A stretch of 8,652 bases of DNA from a virus (taxonomy: Duplodnaviria > Heunggongvirae > Uroviricota > Caudoviricetes), in the IMG/VR virus record IMGVR_UViG_2778261122_000008, one strand, 5' to 3'. Position numbers and translations under genes: made by a program. Of this stretch, positions 1 through 8,652 are shown one piece after another (the first letter of the stretch is position 1; the number at the start of each line of letters is the position of its first letter). The notes under the pieces were generated by a model. It did not search any database, was not told the DNA's origin, and was given only the letters and a program-made list of their open reading frames with translations.

Positions 1-120
1 CAGATAAAGCAAGTACAGCACTTCCTGCTTTACGGGTAGAAGATTTGAATAAGATGATTGGACTTCCTTCCGAGGTCGCATAATCGTCCTTTATTTTTGG
101 CATAAACAACAGAGGCGAAG

Positions 121-318
121 ATGTTGACAGTTGGTAAGTCATATTCAACTAAAAATGGAAAGATATTTAGTTGTGAAAAAGATATTGGAGAAATAGACAC
201 TATCTTTCCATTTGGTGGATGGGTATACAATTCTGATGGAAGCAAAGACAGATTTGCATATTACACCAGAGGAGGTACTTATAAACTAACCAAATCAGAA
301 TATGATTTAATTATTTAG
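121..318 (+). CDS. Hypothetical small protein (65 aa) in a low-GC cassette
   Basis: ORF with GAGG 8 nt upstream of the ATG. GC is about 32% by hand count, against about 47-50% in neighbouring phage genes. Followed by a hairpin and a terminator. No family recognised. Confidence 0.45.
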   Translation: MLTVGKSYSTKNGKIFSCEKDIGEIDTIFPFGGWVYNSDGSKDRFAYYTRGGTYKLTKSEYDLII

Positions 319-330
319 CACAGAGAAGCA

Positions 331-362
331 CTGTGTATTCATTCCAACGAGTGAATACACGG
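331..362 (+). repeat. Perfect 9-bp inverted repeat (GTGTATTCA / TGAATACAC) with a 10-nt spacer; no T-tract
   Basis: Read directly: arms at 333..341 and 352..360, extendable by C331-G362. It is followed by GGAGCAATG rather than a U-run, so it is not a canonical intrinsic terminator. Confidence 0.45.
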
Positions 363-422
363 AGCAATGTCGCTCGTAACTAAACAGGAGCCGACTTGTT
401 CTGATTATTGGAAATCTTCTTT

Positions 423-448
423 GCCCTCCAGTGTGAGGGCCTTTTTAT
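423..448 (+). terminator. Rho-independent terminator candidate
   Basis: GCCCTC (423..428), loop CAGTGT, GAGGGC (435..440), then CTTTTTAT. It lies inside the N-terminal part of the track ORF 408..683, which argues that gene really starts at 513. Confidence 0.6.
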
Positions 449-512
449 ATGCATACCAATAACGCTTCACTCGAGGCGTTTTCGTTATGCAATCAAACAG
501 AAGGAGCATCCT

Positions 513-683
513 ATGCAACAGTTCGCTATTGCAGGGGCGGCATCGGTTCGCCCTTTCAACCCGATTTTATCGGTACAGCATTCACGAAAAAATATTTTAA
601 CCGGAGCAGACTTTAAACAACCAAGAATGAAAAGTTTGCTCGAAAAGCTTTGGGATATTTTGAAACAACAAGGCCGTCCATGA
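513..683 (+). CDS. Hypothetical small phage protein (56 aa)
   Basis: Internal ATG of track ORF 408..683 with AAGGAG 6 nt upstream. Lies downstream of the terminator at 423..448. Its stop overlaps the next start (ATGA at 680..683). Confidence 0.45.
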   Translation: MQQFAIAGAASVRPFNPILSVQHSRKNILTGADFKQPRMKSLLEKLWDILKQQGRP

Positions 684-787
684 GTTTTACAGATAACTGG
701 TCAGACGAAGAATTCATTCGTCAGATGAACAAAATGCTCAATCAGCACAAAGAACAGGAGAAAGATGATGATTCTGACTCTGAATGA
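680..787 (+). CDS. Possible very small acidic protein (35 aa)
   Basis: Hand-translated ORF MSFTDNWSDEEFIRQMNKMLNQHKEQEKDDDSDSE. Its start is ATGA-coupled to the upstream stop. It is below the ORF-track size cutoff and overlaps the start of the next gene by 23 nt. Confidence 0.25.
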   Translation: MSFTDNWSDEEFIRQMNKMLNQHKEQEKDDDSDSE

Positions 788-1076
788 TAAGCGTGAAATA
801 TCGCAAATAATCGCAAGTTTTACTGAGGAAGATTACGAACGAATCAACAGTGAAGTTGATCGCCTCTGCAAACGTTGCGACCCAATAAGCGAAATGCTTC
901 GCTCATATAAACCAGATGAACACACTAAGGACGCTATCGACTGGCTGGAAGATGATGACTGTAACTATCAGGAAAAAGCCGCTGAATGGTTCTGGGATGC
1001 AATAACCGAAAGAGTTAAGGCTGAATATGCCTTCGCAATATTCAAACGCAGACACATTTATGGAGAAGCAGCATGA
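765..1076 (+). CDS. Hypothetical acidic phage protein (103 aa) immediately upstream of recT
   Basis: AGGAG upstream (start could be ATG 765 or 768). Stop overlaps the recT start (ATGA at 1073..1076). Rich in Asp/Glu, net negative by hand count. No family recognised. Confidence 0.6.
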   Translation: MMILTLNDKREISQIIASFTEEDYERINSEVDRLCKRCDPISEMLRSYKPDEHTKDAIDWLEDDDCNYQEKAAEWFWDAITERVKAEYAFAIFKRRHIYGEAA

Positions 1077-1984
1077 GCAATATCGTTGAATTCGTTAAAC
1101 AGCAGGAGCAGTTATTCTGCGGGGCATTGACTGAACAGACGGTGACATGGGCTAAGGAAAGCCAGTTTGCAATTCAGTATTTCCAGAAAAATGATTACCT
1201 GGCTAAAACGGCACTGGCAAATCCAACCAGCGCACAGAACGCCATCATCAATGTTGCGGCGATCGGCATCACCTTAAACCCGGCTAGCAAACTGGCTTAT
1301 CTGGTTCCGCGCGACGGCATGGTGTGCCTTGATATCAGTTATATGGGATTGCTCCATATTGCAATGGAGTCTGGTGTTATCTCATGGGGTCAGGCAAAAC
1401 TTGTTCATGCTAACGATACCTATGAGTCAAACGGGCTTGATAAAGCACCAACCCATAAATACAACGCCTTCGGTGATCGTGGTGATATCGTTGGCGTTTA
1501 CTGCACAGTTAAGACGCCAGCAGGTGATTATCTAACGGAAGAGATGAGTCTGGCTGAAATTGAGGCTGTAAGGAAAACAAGCAAGGCGGCATTCAGCGAT
1601 AAAGGACCATGGGTAAATCACTGGAATGAGATGGCGCGAAAGACGGTCGTAAAGCGTGCAAGCAAGTATTGGCCTAAGGCATCACGTCTTGATAGTGCTA
1701 TTCACGTACTAAACGAAGAAGAAGGTGTGTGGACTGAACCAGTTATGCCGCACAAATCAGAGGAAGATATCCGCGAAGATGAACGGAAACGCCAGCAGGA
1801 AATAACGGATAAAGCACAACTTCTTTGTGATGAAATGGCTCAGGCTGAAAACATGGATGATTTGAAGCGATATTTTGCAGAAGCATATCGCCTGACATCT
1901 GGAATGAAATTGCAGCAGAACGTACAAGCCATTTACATAGAATGCAAAGCGAAACTGGAGGTTGCCAGTGAGCAAACTGTATGA
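1073..1984 (+). CDS. recT: RecT-family single-strand annealing protein (phage recombinase)
   Basis: 303-aa translation. The segment GPWVNHWNEMARKTVVKRASKYWP closely resembles the conserved RecT core as I recall it from Rac RecT (GPWVTHWEEMAKKT...KYLP). GGAG 7 nt upstream of ATG. Confidence 0.85.
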   Translation: MSNIVEFVKQQEQLFCGALTEQTVTWAKESQFAIQYFQKNDYLAKTALANPTSAQNAIINVAAIGITLNPASKLAYLVPRDGMVCLDISYMGLLHIAMESGVISWGQAKLVHANDTYESNGLDKAPTHKYNAFGDRGDIVGVYCTVKTPAGDYLTEEMSLAEIEAVRKTSKAAFSDKGPWVNHWNEMARKTVVKRASKYWPKASRLDSAIHVLNEEEGVWTEPVMPHKSEEDIREDERKRQQEITDKAQLLCDEMAQAENMDDLKRYFAEAYRLTSGMKLQQNVQAIYIECKAKLEVASEQTV

Positions 1985-2450
1985 AATAGCCAATGAATAC
2001 GCAAAGCTGATGGATTCAGATTTAGAGCCAGAGATGATTGCTGACACAATAGAAGGAATGGAAGGAGAATTTACCGATAAAATAGAGCAACTTCTTGCCA
2101 TTATTAAAAATGAATCTGGTTATGCTGAACGCCTCAAGGACGAGGCAAAGTCACTGAATGAACGAGCAGCAGTAATTCAAAATAAGATTGACAGCATTAT
2201 GGCGTATATAGCGTCATCGCTTGAAATGGTTGGCAAGAAAAAGATTCGAGCAGGTATTCACCAGGTAACAATCCGCAAACCGTCAGAAACTGTAGAAATA
2301 ATCGACTCAAGCGCCCTTCCTCCTGAATACGTTGAGTTTGAAACGACAATTAAAGCTGACAAACTGGCAATCAAACACCAACTAAAAGCAGGAATAAATA
2401 TCCCCGGCGCTCAACTCAAAGTTGGGAAACCTTCACTTCTTATCAAATAA
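1968..2450 (+). CDS. Sipho_Gp157-like protein (recombination-module accessory protein)
   Basis: GTG start with GGAGG 6 nt upstream (the track begins at TTG 1962). N-terminus (M)SKLYEIANEY and C-terminus ...NIPGAQLKVGKPSLLIK match my recollection of the Gp157 family, which often sits beside RecT/Erf genes. Confidence 0.6.
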   Translation: MSKLYEIANEYAKLMDSDLEPEMIADTIEGMEGEFTDKIEQLLAIIKNESGYAERLKDEAKSLNERAAVIQNKIDSIMAYIASSLEMVGKKKIRAGIHQVTIRKPSETVEIIDSSALPPEYVEFETTIKADKLAIKHQLKAGINIPGAQLKVGKPSLLIK

Positions 2451-2461
2451 CGGTATCTCCT

Positions 2462-2776
2462 ATGAAAAAGACTCCATGGGAGAAATGGGAAGTCGATTTC
2501 TTGCGCGAAGTGGCGGCGACAATGCCAGTTGAAGTTATCGCTGAAAAACTGGAAAGGACTGAAAAAGCAGTAATGGCGAAAGCAACAAGGATTGGCGCTG
2601 ACATTGTTAGCCGACTTCGTGGAAGACGCTGGACAAGAGCCGAAGTATCACTTTTCGGTAAGTTCTCCGCAGAAGAAATAGCAATTGCAACCTGCCGCTC
2701 AATTTATTCAGTAAGAGCTATGCGATACAAGCTAAAAAAACTCGATGAAGAAAGAGCAGGCATACGAATAAATTAA
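2462..2776 (+). CDS. Hypothetical DNA-binding protein with two tandem HTH-like repeats
   Basis: 104 aa. Internal duplication: WEKWEVDFLREV..PVEVIAEKLERTEKAVMAKATRIG versus RRWTRAEVSLFGKF.AEEIAIATCRSIYSVRAMRYKLKKL. The E-x-I-A...R-[ST]-x-x-[AS]-V pattern resembles sigma-70 region 4 / LuxR / Myb-type HTH. Confidence 0.6.
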   Translation: MKKTPWEKWEVDFLREVAATMPVEVIAEKLERTEKAVMAKATRIGADIVSRLRGRRWTRAEVSLFGKFSAEEIAIATCRSIYSVRAMRYKLKKLDEERAGIRIN

Positions 2777-2792
2777 CATGGAATAATTAACA

Positions 2793-3074
2793 ATGAAGCT
2801 AAACATCGACCTCGGCAAATACGTTATTACCGGAACCAAACACGACCTGATTCTTAATGAAAGAGGAATTATCAAAGAAGGTGAGAATGCAGGGAAAGAA
2901 ACACTAAGCCGTATCGGTTATTACAGCAAGTTTGAGCATCTGGTTAAAGAGTTATGCAACCGTGAAATCCTGTTATCTCAGGCGCAGACGCTACAGGATA
3001 TTCAGCAGCATATCGAGACTTTAGGTGTGTCACTTAGCATGGCTATTGACCAGTTCGTGGAGAGTAAATCATGA
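2793..3074 (+). CDS. Hypothetical phage protein (93 aa)
   Basis: ORF in the co-directional operon. Its stop overlaps the next start (ATGA at 3071..3074). No family recognised. Confidence 0.55.
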
Positions 3075-3235
3075 GAGGACTTGCATACAATCCCGGCATT
3101 CTTCCGGCAGAAATGATTATTCGCCAACGCGTAAAGCCAATGCCATCGAGAGAGGAATTGCTTAAGAGAAATAGTTTCGGTTATGTTAATGGCAACAAAT
3201 ATCTGAATGCGATGTGGCGGAGTGGGAAGAAATGA
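3071..3235 (+). CDS. Hypothetical small phage protein (54 aa)
   Basis: Hand-translated [61 protein letters not shown]-coupled at both ends (3071 and 3232). Below the ORF-track cutoff. Confidence 0.4.
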
Positions 3236-3762
3236 AACAAATGTCACTAATTGAGATGGATGGATTTCTGAAAGGTAAATGCATCCCAAGTGATTTAAAG
3301 GTTAACGAAACAAACGCTGAATATCTGGTGCGTAAATTTGCTGAAGCGCAGGCCAAATGCGCGGCGCTGGCGGCGGAGAATGCTGGGCTGAAACATGCAA
3401 TGGCTGTAACTCTTGAGCATGTGTCGGTCACGGATGCAGGGCAGGCCGGAGTTGCTGCAATGATTATCAACGATGCCCTGCACCACAGCGAAACTCCAGC
3501 CACCGATGCTTTTCTGGCTGAAATTCGTGCGGCGGCTCGCAACGAGGGGATTAACTATACCGCAAGCCGTCTTGCTGCTGCTTTCAACCACGGATTTATC
3601 AATAAGTCTTTACGTGAAGTTTTCGACGTTACGCGCATGATTCTGTCAGCGAAAGAAGAGTTGGCTAATGAAGCGCATCCGATTGATGGCCTGTCTGGTG
3701 AATATGCGGAGAAATCCCTTGAAGAATGGGCGGAACAGATTCGCAAAGGAGGCAAGCAGTGA
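3232..3762 (+). CDS. Hypothetical phage protein (176 aa)
   Basis: In-frame ATG at 3232 within track ORF 3214..3762, overlapping the upstream stop (ATGA). No confidently recognised domain. Confidence 0.6.
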
Positions 3763-4082
3763 GCAAAATGACAATCACAAAACAACGAGTAGAAAAAATC
3801 ATATATCGCCATGAAATGGGATTGAACAGCGATGTCACTTCCGAAGAGGTTTATGACCTGGCTGTACTGGCGCTGAATTTATCAAATATCGTAAACCTCA
3901 AGCGATACGAGCTTGATATGGATGGTTGTGACTCGTTCGGTCAGGATTGTGGCGCTGACATGACTGAAGATTCTGATGGTGCTTACGTCCTGTTTGATGA
4001 CGTGGTTAAGTTGTTTGAGTTTGATACAACCACTCAGAAGCCAGAAAGCCCAGCAAAGGAGGCAACCAGTGAGCAAGATTGA
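3759..4082 (+). CDS. Hypothetical phage protein (~107 aa), GTG start
   Basis: AAGGAGG 6 nt upstream of GTG 3759, which overlaps the upstream stop (GTGA). An alternative in-frame ATG is at 3768. Shares the junction motif CAGTGAGCAA with the starts at 1968 and 4069. Confidence 0.55.
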   Translation: MSKMTITKQRVEKIIYRHEMGLNSDVTSEEVYDLAVLALNLSNIVNLKRYELDMDGCDSFGQDCGADMTEDSDGAYVLFDDVVKLFEFDTTTQKPESPAKEATSEQD

Positions 4083-4578
4083 CTATCAGGCACTGCGTGA
4101 AGCGGCACAGAACGCGAAAAATTTAGGTGGGATTAAGAATTACAAGCGAGGCGAGCAAGCTGTTGCCGAATTTAAGTCCTTGATAACGCCACATATTGTG
4201 CTGGCGCTTCTGGAAGAACGGGAAAGAAACCAGCAATACATCAAACGCCGCGACCAGGAGAACGAGGATATTGCGCTTACGGTAGGGAAGCTGCGTGTTG
4301 AGCTTGAAGCCGTGCAGAAGACATCAGCGGCACGAATCGAAGCTATAGACCGCACTCACAAAATGTTCCAGCGTGAAAAAGACCGAGCCGATGCCGCAGA
4401 GAAGTGCATAGCAGAACTGTCTGCTAGCCACAGCAAATTGCGCGACACAATGGCTGGCATCCACAACACAATCCGAATGGATGGCGGCTATACGCCACTG
4501 GCAGCAATCCTTAACGCTGCTAAACGCGCATATGAAGAATCAGCAAGCGCAGCTGGCATTCGCATCAAAGGAGAGTGA
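4069..4578 (+). CDS. Ea22-like (Ead/Ea22 family) protein, coiled-coil rich
   Basis: GTG start with AAGGAGG 6 nt upstream. N-terminal IDYQALREAAQNA and ITPHIVLALLEERE resemble motifs I recall from enterobacterial Ead/Ea22-like proteins. Position between the recombination module and xis matches lambda ea22. Confidence 0.55.
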   Translation: MSKIDYQALREAAQNAKNLGGIKNYKRGEQAVAEFKSLITPHIVLALLEERERNQQYIKRRDQENEDIALTVGKLRVELEAVQKTSAARIEAIDRTHKMFQREKDRADAAEKCIAELSASHSKLRDTMAGIHNTIRMDGGYTPLAAILNAAKRAYEESASAAGIRIKGE

Positions 4579-4579
4579 T

Positions 4580-5011
4580 ATGACCACTATAACCGATAAG
4601 AAACAGTATCCAGGCGAGCAATATCTTAATGAGCTGATCACCAACATAGAGTTTGCTGCAAGGGCACCAGTTGAAGTCGTGAGAGCGATGGCAGCAGAGC
4701 TACAGAAGCGGCGCGAAGCTGATAGTGCCGAACCTGTAAGCCAAACTTACAAGTTGAACGAGCTATCTGGCAACTCTCCGGTAACTCCGGATAGTTGGAT
4801 AAGCTGTAGTGAGCGAATGCCGAACGATAAACAGTATGTTTGGTGTTGGGGTAAGTCTTACGGCTGGACTGAGTGCAATACCTTCGAAGGGTATTACGAT
4901 TGGTCGAGAAACAAATGGTGGGCAGTTACTGACGATGGGGAAGAACCGGCATCGAAAGTAACTCACTGGATGCCGCTACCAGAACCGCCGCAGGAGGTTA
5001 ACCGTGGCTAA
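4580..5011 (+). CDS. DUF551-domain phage protein
   Basis: ATG with GGAG 6 nt upstream. The C-terminal WISCSERMPNDKQYVWCW...KVTHWMPLPEPP matches the DUF551 hallmark (W..ERLP...THWMPLPEPP) as I remember it. Confidence 0.7.
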   Translation: MTTITDKKQYPGEQYLNELITNIEFAARAPVEVVRAMAAELQKRREADSAEPVSQTYKLNELSGNSPVTPDSWISCSERMPNDKQYVWCWGKSYGWTECNTFEGYYDWSRNKWWAVTDDGEEPASKVTHWMPLPEPPQEVNRG

Positions 5012-5110
5012 CCTGCAACTTGCCGTTAAAGGTAAATAACAATCCTCGCACTCGCGGGGATTTCTTTTATCTGAACTCGCTACGGCGGGTTTTGTTTTGT
5101 GGAGATGATT

Positions 5111-5410
5111 ATGGCCTGTTCAACATTCAACCCTCTAACGTTACAGAAATACCAGCCAGACCCTGAAGATTTATGCTCACTGTGTGGCGGAATTCATGGT
5201 AAAGCCGCCATGATCGAATGTAAGGACAAAATCCACATATGCCTTAATTGCGTTGATGTCCTCGTTGATATCAAAAATGAGAGAGAAGATAAAAAGCGTA
5301 GCGAGGCTGTTCGTGCCTTAGATTCATGGATGCGAGATGGGTATAGTGCTGCGCAAATTTATGACTTAGCAATATCAAAAGGCGAAATACCTGGAGTACG
5401 CATCGAATAA
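5111..5410 (+). CDS. Hypothetical Zn-ribbon protein (CxxC...CxxC), positional analogue of lambda ea8.5
   Basis: ATG 5111 with GGAG 6 nt upstream (the track begins at GTG 5099). Cys pairs CSLCGG and CLNC. Followed by a strong terminator. Confidence 0.6.
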   Translation: MACSTFNPLTLQKYQPDPEDLCSLCGGIHGKAAMIECKDKIHICLNCVDVLVDIKNEREDKKRSEAVRALDSWMRDGYSAAQIYDLAISKGEIPGVRIE

Positions 5411-5450
5411 GACATAACCGATATTCGAATTGAAGAACTGAAAGAACACC

Positions 5451-5473
5451 AAGCCGCCTGATGGCGGTTTTTT
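5451..5473 (+). terminator. Rho-independent terminator
   Basis: CCGCC (5454..5458), loop TGAT, GGCGG (5463..5467), then TTTTTT (5468..5473). Confidence 0.7.
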
Positions 5474-5487
5474 ATTGGGGGTAGTAG

Positions 5488-5703
5488 ATGGCTGCAATTC
5501 ACATTGCATCAATAACATGCAATGCAATTCAGATAGTTGCTTGCATTATCTTTGTTTTCCAAACCCTTCGCTCCCGACGATATTCTCCAGCAATTAACCG
5601 ACATCCTGCACAGGTTGAAGCCGTCAGGATGGCTATAGAGTTACGAAATGAGATGAATAAGGCATTAATGGAGATAGAGAAACCATTCACTGACAAACAT
5701 TAA
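5488..5703 (+). CDS. Questionable small ORF (71 aa, hydrophobic N-terminus); may be a regulatory region instead
   Basis: ORF flanked by terminators at 5451..5473 and 5726..5754. Weak RBS (GGGGG). Its first 60 nt carry a dense TGCAAT/ATTGCA inverted-repeat array, so coding status is uncertain. Confidence 0.3.
   Translation: MAAIHIASITCNAIQIVACIIFVFQTLRSRRYSPAINRHPAQVEAVRMAIELRNEMNKALMEIEKPFTDKH
5493..5528. promoter_or_regulatory. Candidate protein-binding array: four TGCAAT/ATTGCA hexamers forming two overlapping inverted repeats
   Basis: Read directly: TGCAAT 5493..5498, ATTGCA 5503..5508, TGCAAT 5518..5523 and 5523..5528. Inverted repeats are TGCAAT-tcac-ATTGCA and CATTGCAT-caataac-ATGCAATG. 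Confidence 0.35.
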
Positions 5704-5725
5704 GAGTGGAAATAGAAATCACACC

Positions 5726-5754
5726 GCCTCACACTCGATGAGGCATTTTCATTT
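5726..5754 (+). terminator. Rho-independent terminator candidate
   Basis: GCCTCA (5726..5731), loop CACTCGA, TGAGGC (5739..5744), then ATTTTCATTT. Confidence 0.5.
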
Positions 5755-5809
5755 ATCAAGATATCCAGACCTACCGCAATAATACCAACTCAATAAATGG
5801 AGATTCCAG

Positions 5810-6157
5810 GTGGAAGAAGAAATCTTCACTCGTGAAGAAGCAGCGTCGTATCTGAAGGTAGACAAAGGAACTATCACGCAGTGGATACGAAGTGGACGAC
5901 TTCAGGCCGCAAAGATAAATCCAGATAAACCTAAAAGCCCATATCGCATTTGCAAGTCAGACTGCATTGCGGCGCTTAAGTCTGTGAGACACAATAGCGC
6001 GGTGAATGCGGTTGATGTGCAGGAGGTTAAAGCATGTCAATCAAACTACGCGGTGGCACGTGGCACTGCGATTTCGTCGCGCCAGATGGATCAAGAGTTA
6101 GACGCTCTCTTGAAACATCGGACAAGAGGCAAGCGCAAGAACTTCACGATCGTCTGA
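5810..6157 (+). CDS. xis: Excisionase-like DNA-binding protein (HTH, Xis/AlpA type)
   Basis: GTG start with GGAG upstream. N-terminal FTREEAASYLKVDKGTITQWIRSGRLQAAKI is a typical excisionase-family HTH. Sits immediately upstream of int and overlaps it by 124 nt; the true C-terminus is uncertain. Confidence 0.6.
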   Translation: MEEEIFTREEAASYLKVDKGTITQWIRSGRLQAAKINPDKPKSPYRICKSDCIAALKSVRHNSAVNAVDVQEVKACQSNYAVARGTAISSRQMDQELDALLKHRTRGKRKNFTIV

Positions 6158-7194
6158 AAGCAGAAGCGTGGAGAGTAAAAAATCTCGGAGAATCACCGAA
6201 AAAGCTATTCAAGGAAGCCTGCATACGGTGGCTGCGTGAGAAATCGGATAAGAAGTCCATTGATGATGACAAGAGCATTATATCGTTCTGGATGTTGCAC
6301 TTCAGAGAAACCATTCTCTCTGACATAACAACAGAAAAAATAATGGAGGCGGTAGACGGGATGGAAAACCGCCGCCATCGCCTGAACTGGGAAATGAGCC
6401 GGGACAGGTGTTTGCGGCTTGGCAAGCCAGTGCCGGAGTATAAACCAAAGCTGGCAAGCAAAGGAACGAAGACGCGGCATCTGGCAATACTTCGCGCTAT
6501 TCTCAATATGACTGTTGAATGGGGATGGATTGACAGGGCACCCAAAATATCAACACCACGCGTTAAGAATGGACGAATCAGATGGCTTACAGAGGAGGAA
6601 TCTAAGCGCCTGTTTGCAGAAATTGCTCCTCATTTCTTCCCTGTGGTCATGTTTGCAATCACGACAGGCCTTCGCCGTTCCAACGTTACAGACCTTGAAT
6701 GGTCACAGGTCGATCTGGATAAGAAAATGGCATGGATGCACCCTGATGAAACAAAAGCTGGCAATGCGATCGGAGTTCCTCTTAACGAAACCGCATGCCA
6801 GATATTAAGAAAACAGCAGGGTCTCCATAAGAGATGGGTATTTGTCCACACCAAACCTGCCTACCGAAGCGACGGAACAAAAACAGCAGCGGTAAGGAAG
6901 ATGAGAACCGACAGCAACAAGGCATGGAAGGGAGCGTTAAAGCGGGCAGGCATTAGCAACTTCCGCTTCCATGACCTGAGGCATACCTGGGCAAGCTGGC
7001 TGGTTCAGTCCGGTGTCTCTCTTCTTGCACTTAAAGAGATGGGAGGATGGGAAACTCTCGAAATGGTTCAAAGATACGCCCACCTTTCAGCCGGGCATCT
7101 CACCGAGCACGCTAGCAAAATCGATGCGATTATAAGTCGCAATGGCACAAATACGGCACAAGAGGAGAACGTGGTTTACTTAAATGTGAGGTAA
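6034..7194 (+). CDS. int: Tyrosine-type site-specific integrase
   Basis: 386 aa with AGGAGG 7 nt upstream. C-terminal catalytic signature TGLRRSNV...HDLRHTWAS...LEMVQRYAHL (R...HxxR...Y). Ends 14 bp from the tRNA 3' end. Confidence 0.9.
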   Translation: MSIKLRGGTWHCDFVAPDGSRVRRSLETSDKRQAQELHDRLKAEAWRVKNLGESPKKLFKEACIRWLREKSDKKSIDDDKSIISFWMLHFRETILSDITTEKIMEAVDGMENRRHRLNWEMSRDRCLRLGKPVPEYKPKLASKGTKTRHLAILRAILNMTVEWGWIDRAPKISTPRVKNGRIRWLTEEESKRLFAEIAPHFFPVVMFAITTGLRRSNVTDLEWSQVDLDKKMAWMHPDETKAGNAIGVPLNETACQILRKQQGLHKRWVFVHTKPAYRSDGTKTAAVRKMRTDSNKAWKGALKRAGISNFRFHDLRHTWASWLVQSGVSLLALKEMGGWETLEMVQRYAHLSAGHLTEHASKIDAIISRNGTNTAQEENVVYLNVR

Positions 7195-7225
7195 CTTATT
7201 GATTTAAATGGTGCCGATAATAGGA
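7195..7225. other. Probable prophage attachment junction (att core overlapping the tRNA-Thr 3' end)
   Basis: Inferred from the int-tRNA arrangement. The core cannot be delimited without the other prophage end or an empty-site sequence. Confidence 0.3.
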
Positions 7226-7284
7226 GTCGAACCTACGACCTTCGCATTACGAATGCGCTGCTCTACCAACTGAGCTATATCGGC
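7209..7284 (-). tRNA. thrW: tRNA-Thr (anticodon CGU)
   Basis: The reverse complement reads GCCGATATAGCTCAGTTGGTAGAGCAGCGCATTCGTAATGCGAAGGTCGTAGGTTCGACTCCTATTATCGGCACCA (76 nt). It has a 7-bp acceptor stem GCCGATA/TATCGGC, a D-arm, the anticodon loop TTCGTAA (CGT), a T-arm GGTTCGACTCC and an encoded CCA. Matches E. coli thrW as I recall it. Confidence 0.93.
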
Positions 7285-7398
7285 CCTGAAAGGACATGTT
7301 CACGAACGTGAATCACGGTGGACAAGGTTAAAACTAACCGGGCGATGCGTCAATGGCCTTGTGAATCAAATGGCTACTTTTGCATCACCCGGTTTTAT

Positions 7399-8652
7399 TT
7401 ACGCACGAATGGTGTAATCACCAATGCCGATCCACTTATAAGTGGTCAGAGCTTCCAGCCCCATTGGGCCGCGCGCGTGGAGTTTTTGTGTGCTTACCGC
7501 AACTTCCGCCCCCAGTCCAAACTGGCCGCCGTCGGTAAAACGCGTAGAGGCGTTAACGTAAACAGCGGAGGAATCCACTTCGTTAACAAAACGCTGGGCG
7601 TTGCGCATATCGCGGGTCAGGATCGCATCGGAGTGTTGCGTGCCGTGTTCACGAATATGGGCAATGGCGTCATCCAGATCGCTAACGATTTTGACGTTCA
7701 AATCTAATGACAGAAACTCATCGTCATACTCTTCGGCTTTAACAGCCACCACCTTCGCGGGGCCTGCCTGCAACTGCGCCAGCGCGGCTGCATCAGCGTG
7801 TAACGTCACGCCGCTTTCCGCCATTTGTTTGCTTAATGCGGGCAGGAAGCTATCAGCGATGTTTTTATTCACCAGCAACGTTTCTACCGTATTACATGTG
7901 CTCGGACGCTGAGTTTTCGCGTTGACAATTACTTTCAGGGCTTCAGCGATCTCTGCACTTTCATCAACGTAAATATGGCATACGCCTATACCGCCTGTGA
8001 TCACCGGGATTGTCGACTGCTCGCGGCACAGTTTATGCAAACCAGCCCCACCGCGCGGGATCAGCATGTCGATGTATTTATCCATACGCAGCATTTCACT
8101 GACCAGCGCACGGTCAGGATTATCAATTGCCTGCACGGCACCCGCCGGTAAGCCGCAGGATTTCAGGGCGTCCTGAATCACCGCTACCGTTGCAGCGTTA
8201 GTGCGACAGGTTTCTTTGCCGCCGCGCAGGATCACCGCGTTACCGGTTTTCAGGCACAGGGAAGCAACATCAACCGTCACGTTCGGGCGCGCTTCATAAA
8301 TCACGCCAATCACCCCCAGCGGTACGCGACGACGCTCAAGACGCAGGCCGCTGTCCAGTACGCCGCCATCGATTACCTGCCCCACCGGATCGGCGAGATT
8401 GCACACCTGGCGCACATCGTCGGCAATGCCTTTCAGCCGTGCGGGCGTCAGTGCCAGACGGTCAAGCATCGCTTCGCTAAGGCCATTGGCACACGCGTCT
8501 GCAACATCCTGCGCGTTAGCGTTGAGGATACTTTCGCTTTGTGCTTCCAGTTCATCGGCGATTTTTTCCAGCACACGATTTTTTTCGCGGCTGGAGAGTT
8601 GCGCTAATTTATACGAGGCTTGCTTCGCGGCAATGCCCATTTGTTCCAGCAT
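7399..8652 (-). CDS. proA: Gamma-glutamyl phosphate reductase (glutamate-5-semialdehyde dehydrogenase)
   Basis: The 417-aa translation starts [21 protein letters not shown] and ends DYTIRA, recognisable as enterobacterial ProA. The start codon is at the window edge and the stop is TAA at 7399..7401. Confidence 0.95.

Follow-up and report, generated by a model that had tools for sequence, protein, structure and literature searches.

A probable attL junction of a lambdoid prophage in thrW: a 46-bp tRNA-derived core and candidate sites of the P′ arm

We analysed a window of 8,652 nucleotides (the whole stretch of DNA considered here), and saw that its interval from about 7140 to 7284 is, with little room for doubt, the attL site (B-O-P′) of a lambdoid prophage that Int inserted into thrW through site-specific recombination. 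The junction goes far past what chance would give, and as a feature it is familiar: it is the ordinary, well-described left end of a lambdoid prophage in thrW, and the junction as originally posed has annotation value only, as it sets the exact left prophage boundary (7254/7255). The features of the window that enter the argument are as follows.

5810..6157, plus strand: xis, excisionase/recombination directionality factor, 115 aa (HTH_17, identity to P22 Xis)
6034..7194, plus strand: int, 386-aa tyrosine integrase of the P22/SfX lineage (Pfam PF00589, identity to P22 Int, motifs)
7144-7150 and 7155-7161, plus strand: two tandem GGCACAA, candidate P′1/P′2 arm-type Int sites (P-arm recurrence, conservation)
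7180..7186, plus strand: TTAAATG copy 1, int codons Leu383-Asn384-Val385
7192..7204, minus strand: IHF-consensus site AATCAATAAGTTA = WATCAANNNNTTR, candidate H′ bend site (consensus match, conservation)
7204..7210, plus strand: TTAAATG copy 2, the TTGATTTAA flank of the IHF-like site plus TG of the tRNA CCA end
7209..7254, minus strand: att core/identity block, 46 bp, tRNA positions 31-76 (published core, phage break at 7254, second copy in relatives)
7225..7247, minus strand: equivalent of the 23-bp attP core of the P22 genome record (P22virB-3 annotation)
7209..7284, minus strand: thrW, intact tRNA-Thr(CGU) (ARAGORN; 76/76 nt as in K-12 thrW)
7255..8652, minus strand: host chromosome, comprising the 5′ part of thrW, an intergenic region and proA (identity to H22 and K-12; RefSeq)
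7399..8652, minus strand: proA, 417 aa (ORF list)

ARAGORN found one tRNA gene in the window, tRNA-Thr(CGU) on the minus strand; its 76 nt (7209..7284) are identical to K-12 thrW, and the gene is intact, as the original prediction had it. Transcription of int runs towards the tRNA; thrW and int are convergent, an arrangement that has already been classified (thrW-intH of EDL933, PMC2951348). The int stop codon is TAA at 7192-7194 and the CCA end of the tRNA lies at 7209; the predicted spacing of 14 bp (7195-7208) is thus correct. Beyond the tRNA gene, positions 7285-8652 show 99.3% identity with E. coli H22 and 96.3% with K-12, and RefSeq labels proA and tRNA-Thr in the related genomes. A promoter/terminator scan of positions 6900-7450 returned no promoter-like sites and two terminator-like hairpins, both weak.

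The 46-bp block at 7209..7254 is the exact reverse complement of the published SfI/SfII/SfV/SfX/P22 core, ATTCGTAATGCGAAGGTCGTAGGTTCGACTCCTATTATCGGCACCA (PMC3636060). Exact copies of it stand in the attP sites of free phages and at the distal end of related prophages, and shuffles gave 0 matches. The proposal that an att core regenerates the tRNA 3′-end is upheld. The genomes of HK542, HK446, HK75, mEp043, mEp213, ECP1 and mEpX2 follow the window as far as 7254 exactly, beyond which each has its own P arm; this puts the host/phage breakpoint at 7254/7255. HK542 and others annotate attP as ‘similar to thrW and ptwF’.

The same int-thrW-proA junction was present in the lysogens TUM9803 and H22 (the int junction of E. 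coli H22 is 99.2% identical to the window). Both carry an exact second copy of the 46 bp about 38-40 kb away, followed by an HK542-type P arm; the direct repeat that the original prediction had expected at the other prophage end was therefore found, exactly, in these relatives. The core duplication is a result for relatives only, because the window stops short of the far end of its own prophage. An uninterrupted proA-thrW-yagP-paoD site exists in 948 of 5426 complete E. coli genomes, and an int of this type lies beside thrW in 120 of the 5426. Such empty sites, which had been proposed for alignment, allowed a three-way comparison that bracketed the crossover within 7207-7254: position 7206 is phage-type (A; T in the empty attB) and the sequence is host-type from 7255 onward.

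A prophage-chromosome junction at thrW is hence supported by complete genomes of relatives, by the genomes of free phages and by published work, and the same three sources bear out proA-thrW as an integration hotspot; the occupancy of K-12 thrW by CP4-6 was confirmed as well. Different right-hand flanks do occur beside the phage-like region in complete genomes, an outcome that had been thought to speak against the junction; we rejected them as a refutation of integration at thrW, because the tandem prophages share the common 46-bp core. At least 80% of the window was covered by no complete genome in the collection searched.

Under site-specific integration, attP would carry a 46-bp copy of the 3′ part of the tRNA (tRNA positions 31-76), and strand exchange within the block would join the host 5′ part of the tRNA (7255-7284) to the phage copy (7209-7254), with the consequence that the tRNA stays intact and int ends 14 bp past the CCA end. 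The displaced original 3′ segment (TGGTGCCGATAATAGGAGTCGAACCTACGACCTTCGCATTACGAAT) should form a 46-bp direct repeat at attR, beyond the window, where the core copy would be adjoined by the P arm (CTGTAGCACCAATCATAAC...GGCACAAAC...GTCACAAATACGGCACAA). The junction shows that thrW stays functional. The window holds the catalytic domain, the P22 Int homology, the overlapping xis and the 46-nt core by which a P22/SfX-type thrW module is recognized; a module of the HK542/SfX/P22 thrW type predicts where the other end is located and offers a way to detect excision.

As to the place of strand exchange, the P22virB-3 record annotates an attP core whose counterpart in the window is 7225-7247, with identical bases. 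If this annotation can be transferred to an Int of 54% identity, an 8+7+8 reading of it would put the 7-bp overlap region at 7233-7239, in the variable loop/T-stem. One could speculate that strands are exchanged instead in the anticodon loop (7-bp overlap TTCGTAA, about 7247-7253); the symmetric anticodon stem-loop is used by many tRNA-integrating phages, and the block of phage/host identity starts exactly at the 5′ edge of this loop (tRNA position 31, window 7254). We regard this as improbable: the curated P22 record has its 23-bp core at the equivalent of 7225-7247, and the 5′ half of the anticodon stem is not conserved in attP (ACAGA vs GCGCA), so that the loop there has no flanking inverted repeat; within the 46 bp no polymorphism able to map the exchange was found.

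Considering the recombination proteins, we saw that the catalytic domain of Int matches PF00589 (Pfam, E 9.5e-35) and that its motifs are present: GLRR(214), HDLRH(313-317), GGW(339) and RY(348)AH, with R214, H313, R316, W339 and Y348 sitting in conserved motifs aligned to P22 Int. Identity to P22 Int is 54% over 380 of 386 aa (E 1e-156), the alignment starting from residue 1 and including the N-terminal region; the near-identical gene of HK542 is annotated ‘integrase, similar to SfX’. At a permissive Pfam E-value the N-terminus gave a sub-threshold match to DUF6538 only (E 0.0036); for this reason we relied on the homology to P22 Int, by which an N-terminal arm-binding domain would be expected. 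A PDB sequence search with Int returned only distant matches (XerC-like, HP1 Int and XerA), none informative on this domain. Directly upstream, xis overlaps the start of int (6034); its product matches Pfam HTH_17 (E 1.4e-8), shares 42% identity with P22 Xis across 113 aa (E 7e-31) and has an excisionase annotated at the same position in HK542 and HK75. Xis (5810-6157) would direct excision.

Could the attL be real and yet belong to a defective or stranded prophage, unable to excise? Its far end could be deleted, rearranged or a hybrid att in a tandem array, and the window ends inside the prophage. Tandem and decayed elements are common at thrW: CP4-6 in K-12 is one example, arrays of a P22-like prophage and a P4-like satellite exist in TUM9803 and H22, STK78-E has a hybrid junction (HK-type P′/SfII-type P) and a 69-bp int fossil is found at ‘empty’ thrW sites. 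Nevertheless we think stranding unlikely, as int and xis are full-length with intact catalytic motifs, the P′ arm agrees with its counterpart in viable phages at 97-99% identity, and the early-left operon upstream contains many intact ORFs matching viable phages such as HK140 and Kapi1. To judge from these sequence features, this prophage copy would still be active at present.

The likely P′ arm Int sites are two tandem GGCACAA motifs with an 11-bp period, situated within int codons 371-377 (G-T-N-T-A-Q); the P′ arm would overlap the last ~50 nt of int. Three more copies of the motif, all oriented alike, are found on the P arm, both in free-phage attP (HK542, HK75) and in lysogen attR, at +112, +153 and +164 from the core start. 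Together these make five same-orientation hexamers (-65, -54, +112, +153 and +164, counted from the start of the core); their sequence is GGCACA/GTCACA in HK-type phages, and the P22-type phages have GTCCCA at the five equivalent positions. The sites at 7144-7161 would presumably be bound by the N-terminal domain of Int. The interval 7173-7290 given in the original prediction did contain the junction, but the likely arm sites lie partly outside it and had gone unnoticed.

Between the core and the arm sites lies a match to the IHF consensus, which includes the int stop codon (7192-7194). The window has two such matches where 0.5 are expected; the consensus at 7192-7204 is at the identical position in all 10 of the 10 att sites compared, while its NNNN bases vary. 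We therefore list 7192-7204 as a candidate IHF bend site. At the level of sequence, then, candidate arm-type sites on both arms (the P arm being that of free relatives) are accompanied by an IHF-consensus site between core and arm.

A pair of TTAAATG repeats had been noticed here, and both of its positions (7180..7186 and 7204..7210) are correct; the 7-mer is found at 7180 and 7204 and nowhere else in the window. The original prediction left it between coincidence and a part of the att/arm architecture, and we favour the former, because the pair is not conserved in the family, is not on the P arm and is not statistically unusual. In the window 36 direct-repeat pairs of 7-mers with spacing 8-40 were counted, against 23.5 ± 6.6 in first-order Markov simulations, and when 118-bp regions were simulated with the local composition, about 16% contained such a pair. 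Copy 1 would be merely the Leu-Asn-Val codons and copy 2 the conserved flank of the IHF site meeting the tRNA end.

It is very improbable that the two copies are functional att sites (arm-type sites of Int, or sites of Xis, Fis or another accessory protein). They share the P′ arm at a distance of 24 bp (about 2.3 helical turns), they extend to a 10/12 match (TTTACTTAAATG/TTGATTTAAATG), the 7-mer is unique to these places in the window, and close relatives (HK542, HK75, STK78-E) keep the pair. These points are outweighed by the comparative data. Copy 1 is present in close HK-type relatives only and is absent in P22, SfII, ES18 and ENT47670; the position of copy 2, itself accounted for by the conserved IHF-like flank and the tRNA end, reads TTAACTG in P22, ES18 and H22 (the int of H22 being 99% identical) and TTAATTG in ENT47670. 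Both copies thus occur only in near-identical HK-type sites; SfII has a single copy, a single SNP breaks the pair in H22 (7208 A to C), and it is likewise broken in P22, ES18, ENT47670 and the K-12 fossil. No attP examined has TTAAATG on its P arm, in contrast to the classic five-site, two-arm pattern of GGCACA/GTCCCA. As an arm-type site TTAAATG was rejected on these grounds (chance frequency, lack of conservation, no copy on the P arm). For att engineering and annotation, the architecture is not to be sought in the conspicuous AT-rich 7-mer repeat; the att sites are probably the GGCACAA pair hidden in the int coding sequence and the IHF-consensus site with the stop codon.

A close parallel is seen in the Int/Xis/attP module by which Salmonella phage P22 (also ES18, ST64T and ST104) integrates into thrW. 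It has the identical 46-bp tRNA-derived block, the order xis-int-attP, an int that stops about 14 bp short of the tRNA-like CCA, an IHF-consensus site containing the stop codon, and five same-orientation arm hexamers at -65, -54, about +100/112, +154 and +165; the Int and Xis identities to the window proteins were given above (54% and 42%). The arm hexamer of P22 is GTCCCA, whereas the window type has GGCACA/GTCACA, and the C-terminal tails of Int encoded over the hexamers differ correspondingly (SVPNMSH in P22, NGTNTAQ in the window). The hosts differ too (Salmonella vs E. coli), and the cargo of the P arm varies among the relatives examined.

The E. coli lambdoid phages HK542, HK446, HK75, mEp043, mEp213, mEpX2 and ECP1 share 97-99% identity with the window from the 3′-end of int through the P′ arm and core, as far as 7254; the integration module is the same, with both TTAAATG copies and both GGCACAA sites. 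Their free attP runs into the P arm and a tail-fibre gene, whereas the attL of the window runs into the 5′ part of thrW and proA; the rest of the prophage is another mosaic, and no record covers at least 80% of the window. The serotype-converting Shigella flexneri phages SfI, SfII, SfIV, SfV and SfX share the published 46-bp core and the thrW site beside proA (PMC3636060). The int 3′-ends of SfII and SfIV align at about 69% nucleotide identity, also ending at 7254; the SfII type differs in its GTCCCA/GTCTCA arm hexamers and in the gtr cargo of the P arm.

The cryptic prophage CP4-6 of K-12 (thrW ... intF-ptwF) likewise occupies thrW, and direct copies of the tRNA 3′ part delimit it. Its repeat, however, is 49 bp long (CGC + the 46), and IntF is encoded, in another arrangement, at the far end beside ptwF; IntF was not among the matches to the int of the window.

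The lambda attP comprises the sites P1, P2, H1, X, F, H2, C-O-C′, H′ and P′1-3. The window would follow the logic of lambda: Int is heterobivalent, each arm carries arm-type sites, an IHF site lies between the core and the P′ arm, int is transcribed towards attP, and xis lies upstream and overlaps int. Lambda has a 15-bp core unrelated to tRNA and a P′ arm downstream of int, whereas the window has a 46-bp tRNA core and a P′ arm that overlaps the int coding sequence. This logic of the lambda attP is drawn, for a part of it, from PMC2951348.

The GGCACAAATACGGCACA element stays unchanged even in distant bacteria. The 17-mer GGCACAaatacGGCACA (7144-7160, in the last int codons) is exactly kept beside distant Int homologues: the tandem element adjoins homologues of 42-61% identity in Vogesella, Ewingella and Rickettsiales, beta-proteobacterial and other MAGs. 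Mostly it lies 63-67 bp from the CCA end of the targeted tRNA (Thr-CGU, Thr-UGU); larger spacings were seen for Thr-GGU (77 bp), Met (89 bp) and Val (111 bp). In two cases (L034 and L078) an Asn-like tRNA fragment adjoins the element, and one intact viral attP has the element on both sides of the core. Among 29 genome matches of the 19-mer, about 8 had neither a tRNA nor an Int homologue nearby, against about 4 expected by chance; these were left uninterpreted. Searches of the searchable literature (the motif string; GGCACA with arm-type) yielded no paper printing the arm motif.

Possibly, and we put this tentatively, the tandem GGCACAaatacGGCACA could act as arm-type site in a very widespread clade of integrases, exactly conserved as DNA while nearly all of its surroundings change. 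Lambda and HK022 have the same arms and different cores; if the proposal is true, the P22-type GTCCCA with the same thrW core would be their mirror image, a natural swap of arm specificity. The 17-nt element could also make a cheap DNA marker for locating attL/attP across a large clade of integrases, and a natural test case for the evolution of arm specificity.

A separate observation concerns the ‘empty’ E. coli thrW sites: they retain 69 bp of the P′ arm as a fossil (the int fossil mentioned above). This fossil P′ arm, at every ‘empty’ thrW, may still bind Int and IHF, and may add to the hotspot status of thrW.

The junction of prophage and chromosome in the window belongs to a thrW integration module already known from HK-type coliphages. 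Since the module is known and a convergent arrangement of thrW and int is on record for EDL933 (thrW-intH; PMC2951348), the finding is not new. An intact tRNA-Thr(CGU) with the int stop 14 bp away, as the original prediction had it, was correct on both counts by ARAGORN and ORF coordinates (the gap to the tRNA CCA end is 7195-7208). Features at the junction are as follows.

6034..7194, + strand: int, tyrosine integrase of 386 aa, TAA at 7192-7194 (ORF list)
7144-7150 and 7155-7161, + strand: candidate P' arm-type pair GGCACAA, within int codons 371-377
7180-7186 and 7204-7210, + strand: TTAAATG (from sequence), no further copy in the window
7192-7204, - strand: IHF-consensus site AATCAATAAGTTA, fitting consensus WATCAANNNNTTR, between arm-type sites and core
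7209..7284, - strand: tRNA-Thr(CGU), thrW (ARAGORN), the sole tRNA found, identical in sequence to K-12 thrW
7399..8652, - strand: proA, 417 aa

The int product matched PF00589 (E 9.5e-35), contained motifs R214, H313-x-x-R316, W339 and Y348, and was 54% identical to P22 Int across its whole length; a 115-aa HTH protein preceding and overlapping int was 42% identical to P22 Xis. The host flank showed 99.3% identity to E. coli H22 and 96.3% to K-12. The early-left operon (window 1-6030) is a mosaic, with a RecT-type recombinase, a Gp157-family protein, Ea22-like, DUF551 and other small ORFs, and had only piecewise matches to HK140, Kapi1, mEpX1 and others.

In a megablast search against phage genomes, the int end of the window was 97-99% identical in the viable E. 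coli lambdoid phages HK542, HK446, HK75, mEp043, mEp213, ECP1 and mEpX2, with every alignment stopping at exactly 7254; past this point the multiple alignment runs into the phages' own P arm and, in the window, into the 5' part of thrW. Alignments to the int 3' ends of P22, ES18, SfII and SfIV (∼68% nucleotide identity) likewise ended at 7254. For SfI, SfII, SfV, SfX and P22 a 46-bp att core has been published (PMC3636060); the block 7209-7254, tRNA positions 31-76, matches its reverse complement exactly. The attP label for the matching segment in the records of HK542 and its relatives reads 'similar to thrW and ptwF'. The junction proposed at thrW, with an att core regenerating the tRNA 3' end, was thus confirmed. 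CP4-6 does come after thrW in K-12, as the original prediction stated; its boundary repeat (K-12 loci L005 2399-2447 and L006 5207-5255) is 49 bp long, CGC plus the same 46 bp, so this P4-type IntF element and the P22/HK-type phages have essentially one tRNA segment in common.

No collected phage genome or complete E. coli genome covered at least 80% of the window; as the window also begins inside the prophage, its far end was examined in related lysogens, TUM9803 and H22, which have the same xis-int-thrW-proA junction. Both carry the anticipated second copy of the tRNA 3' segment: an exact 46-bp copy at the opposite end of a P22-like prophage, where it leads into an HK542-type P arm. A synthetic empty-site query (proA-thrW joined to K-12 sequence beyond ptwF) was matched in one piece in 948 of 5426 complete E. 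coli genomes, e.g. ATCC 8739; the int of the window adjoined thrW in 120. Comparison of attP, empty attB and the window bracketed the exchange to 7207-7254, with a phage-type base at 7206 and host-type sequence from 7255 on. In the curated P22 record a 23-bp attP core maps to the equivalent of 7225-7247; read as 8+7+8 and transferred from P22, it would place the overlap region at 7233-7239, and we consider an overlap in the anticodon loop instead improbable.

The original prediction had counted phage sequence contiguous with different flanks against integration at thrW. Such cases exist: in some genomes (H18-H20) the phage sequence enters a different right-hand flank after 7254. In STK78-E this flank is the SfII-type P arm of an SfV-like myovirus prophage; the different-flank genomes are therefore tandem prophages with one common core, we rejected them as a refutation, and the thrW reading stands.

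In STK78-E (L011/L139) an HK-type lambdoid prophage abuts the SfV-like prophage via a hybrid site of HK-type P' arm, core and SfII-type P arm, the P-arm cargo being a type ISP R-M enzyme. thrW is a hotspot of tandem arrays: P22-like prophages, then P4-like satellites, then more islands. In the arrays of TUM9803 (L004 7600-21300) and H22 (L014 5100-18540), a satellite with integrase, TOPRIM/DUF927 primase, psu and ogr/delta comes after the P22-like prophage and before further remnants or the vat island; the one in H22 carries Drt3a/b defence genes.

A repeat search of HK542 attP returned two sequences, ATGGCACAAATACGGCACAA within the 3' end of int and ATGTCACAAATACGGCACAA beyond the core. Hexamers GGCACA/GTCACA occur, all in one orientation, at -65, -54, +112, +153 and +164 from the start of the 46-bp block (HK542, HK75 and the attR sites of TUM9803 and H22), and GTCCCA at -65, -54 and +100 in P22, ES18, SfII and ENT47670, in some also at +154 and +165. 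Judged by sequence, the five-hexamer arrangement is the classical two-arm pattern of putative arm-type Int sites. The IHF consensus had two matches in the window versus 0.5 expected; the one at 7192-7204, which includes the int stop codon, recurs at the same position in 10 of 10 att sites compared, while its four N bases vary. Together with the GGCACAA pair it likely constitutes the P' arm.

The P22/Sf-phage module is a sister of the HK-type one: core, geometry and gene order are shared, the arm hexamer is not. HK542 (L001 5663-5898), P22 (L007 1017-1252) and three further loci (L008, L009, L010) do not differ in the 46 bp of their thrW core, and their five arm sites are laid out alike; GGCACA/GTCACA is replaced by GTCCCA in the P22 type, and the Int C-terminal tail over the P' sites changes with it. 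Lambda and HK022 present the mirror image, as their arms are alike and cores different. A TGCAAAG...TGCAAAG repeat or imperfect palindrome (CACAAAGCCTTGCA / TGCAAAGATTTGTG), outside the window, is kept on the otherwise divergent P arms of both types (HK542, L001 5936-5969; P22, L007 ∼1200-1235); it may be a site for Xis or another accessory protein.

These sequence relationships, observed directly, underlie a model in which phage attP, made up of a P arm, a tRNA-like core of 46 bp and a P' arm that overlaps the 3' end of int, would recombine with thrW, with Int monomers bridging from arm to core sites along DNA bent by IHF. Exchange inside the identity block would leave an intact hybrid thrW at attL, the junction in the window, and at attR a tRNA fragment of 46 bp; Xis would reverse the process. 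Protein binding and present activity are suggested by homology to P22, whose att site is listed in the literature as fully characterised.

A 69-bp fossil of the int 3' end and P' arm is present at the 'empty' sites and, in K-12, in the flank past ptwF:

7140-7208 (window equivalent); K-12 L006 5256-5323, - strand in K-12: fossil P' arm by sequence homology, also in ATCC 8739

It is identical to the window at 60 of 69 positions, with a 1-bp deletion, keeps the IHF consensus and the two GGCACAA sites, and its homology breaks off abruptly at 7139/7140. On this evidence the canonical attB is a relic attL in its own right, and a new integration there would create an attR resembling a nearly complete attP.

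The two TTAAATG copies are where the original prediction placed them; a role in att/arm architecture did not hold up, and we rejected the pair as a meaningful repeat. The window has 36 pairs of exact 7-mer direct repeats spaced 8-40 apart, versus 23.5 ± 6.6 in first-order Markov simulations, and such a pair arises in ∼16% of 118-bp regions simulated with the local composition. Among the att sites compared, both copies are confined to near-identical HK-type sites: H22, with a 99.2% identical int junction, has TTAACTG in place of copy 2, SfII has the tRNA-proximal copy only, P22, ES18, ENT47670 and the K-12 fossil have neither, and TTAAATG was absent from the P arm of every attP examined. Copy 1 encodes Leu383-Asn384-Val385 of int; copy 2 is the conserved TTGATTTAA flank of the IHF-like site, abutting TGG of the tRNA end.

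The tandem element GGCACAaatacGGCACA (window 7142-7160) is exactly conserved beside tRNA genes and Int homologues in very distant bacteria (12 genomic and five IMG/VR loci). The exact 19-mer ATGGCACAAATACGGCACA was found in 29 species-representative genomes versus ∼4 expected by chance. Apart from Enterobacterales, its bearers include Vogesella, Ewingella and MAGs of Rickettsiales (one) and other proteobacteria, in which it sits at or just past the 3' limit of genes for Int homologues with 42-61% aa identity. The motif is printed in no paper of the searchable literature, which is weak evidence of novelty. Its distance to the tRNA CCA end is usually 63-67 bp, at tRNA-Thr (CGU or UGU), and larger at Thr-GGU (77 bp), Met (89 bp) and Val (111 bp). 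On an IMG/VR contig with intact attP (L129) an identical 17-mer flanks the tRNA fragment on both sides; as it is non-coding there, coding constraint does not explain the conservation. Another IMG/VR locus, L078, has a triple tandem of the element.
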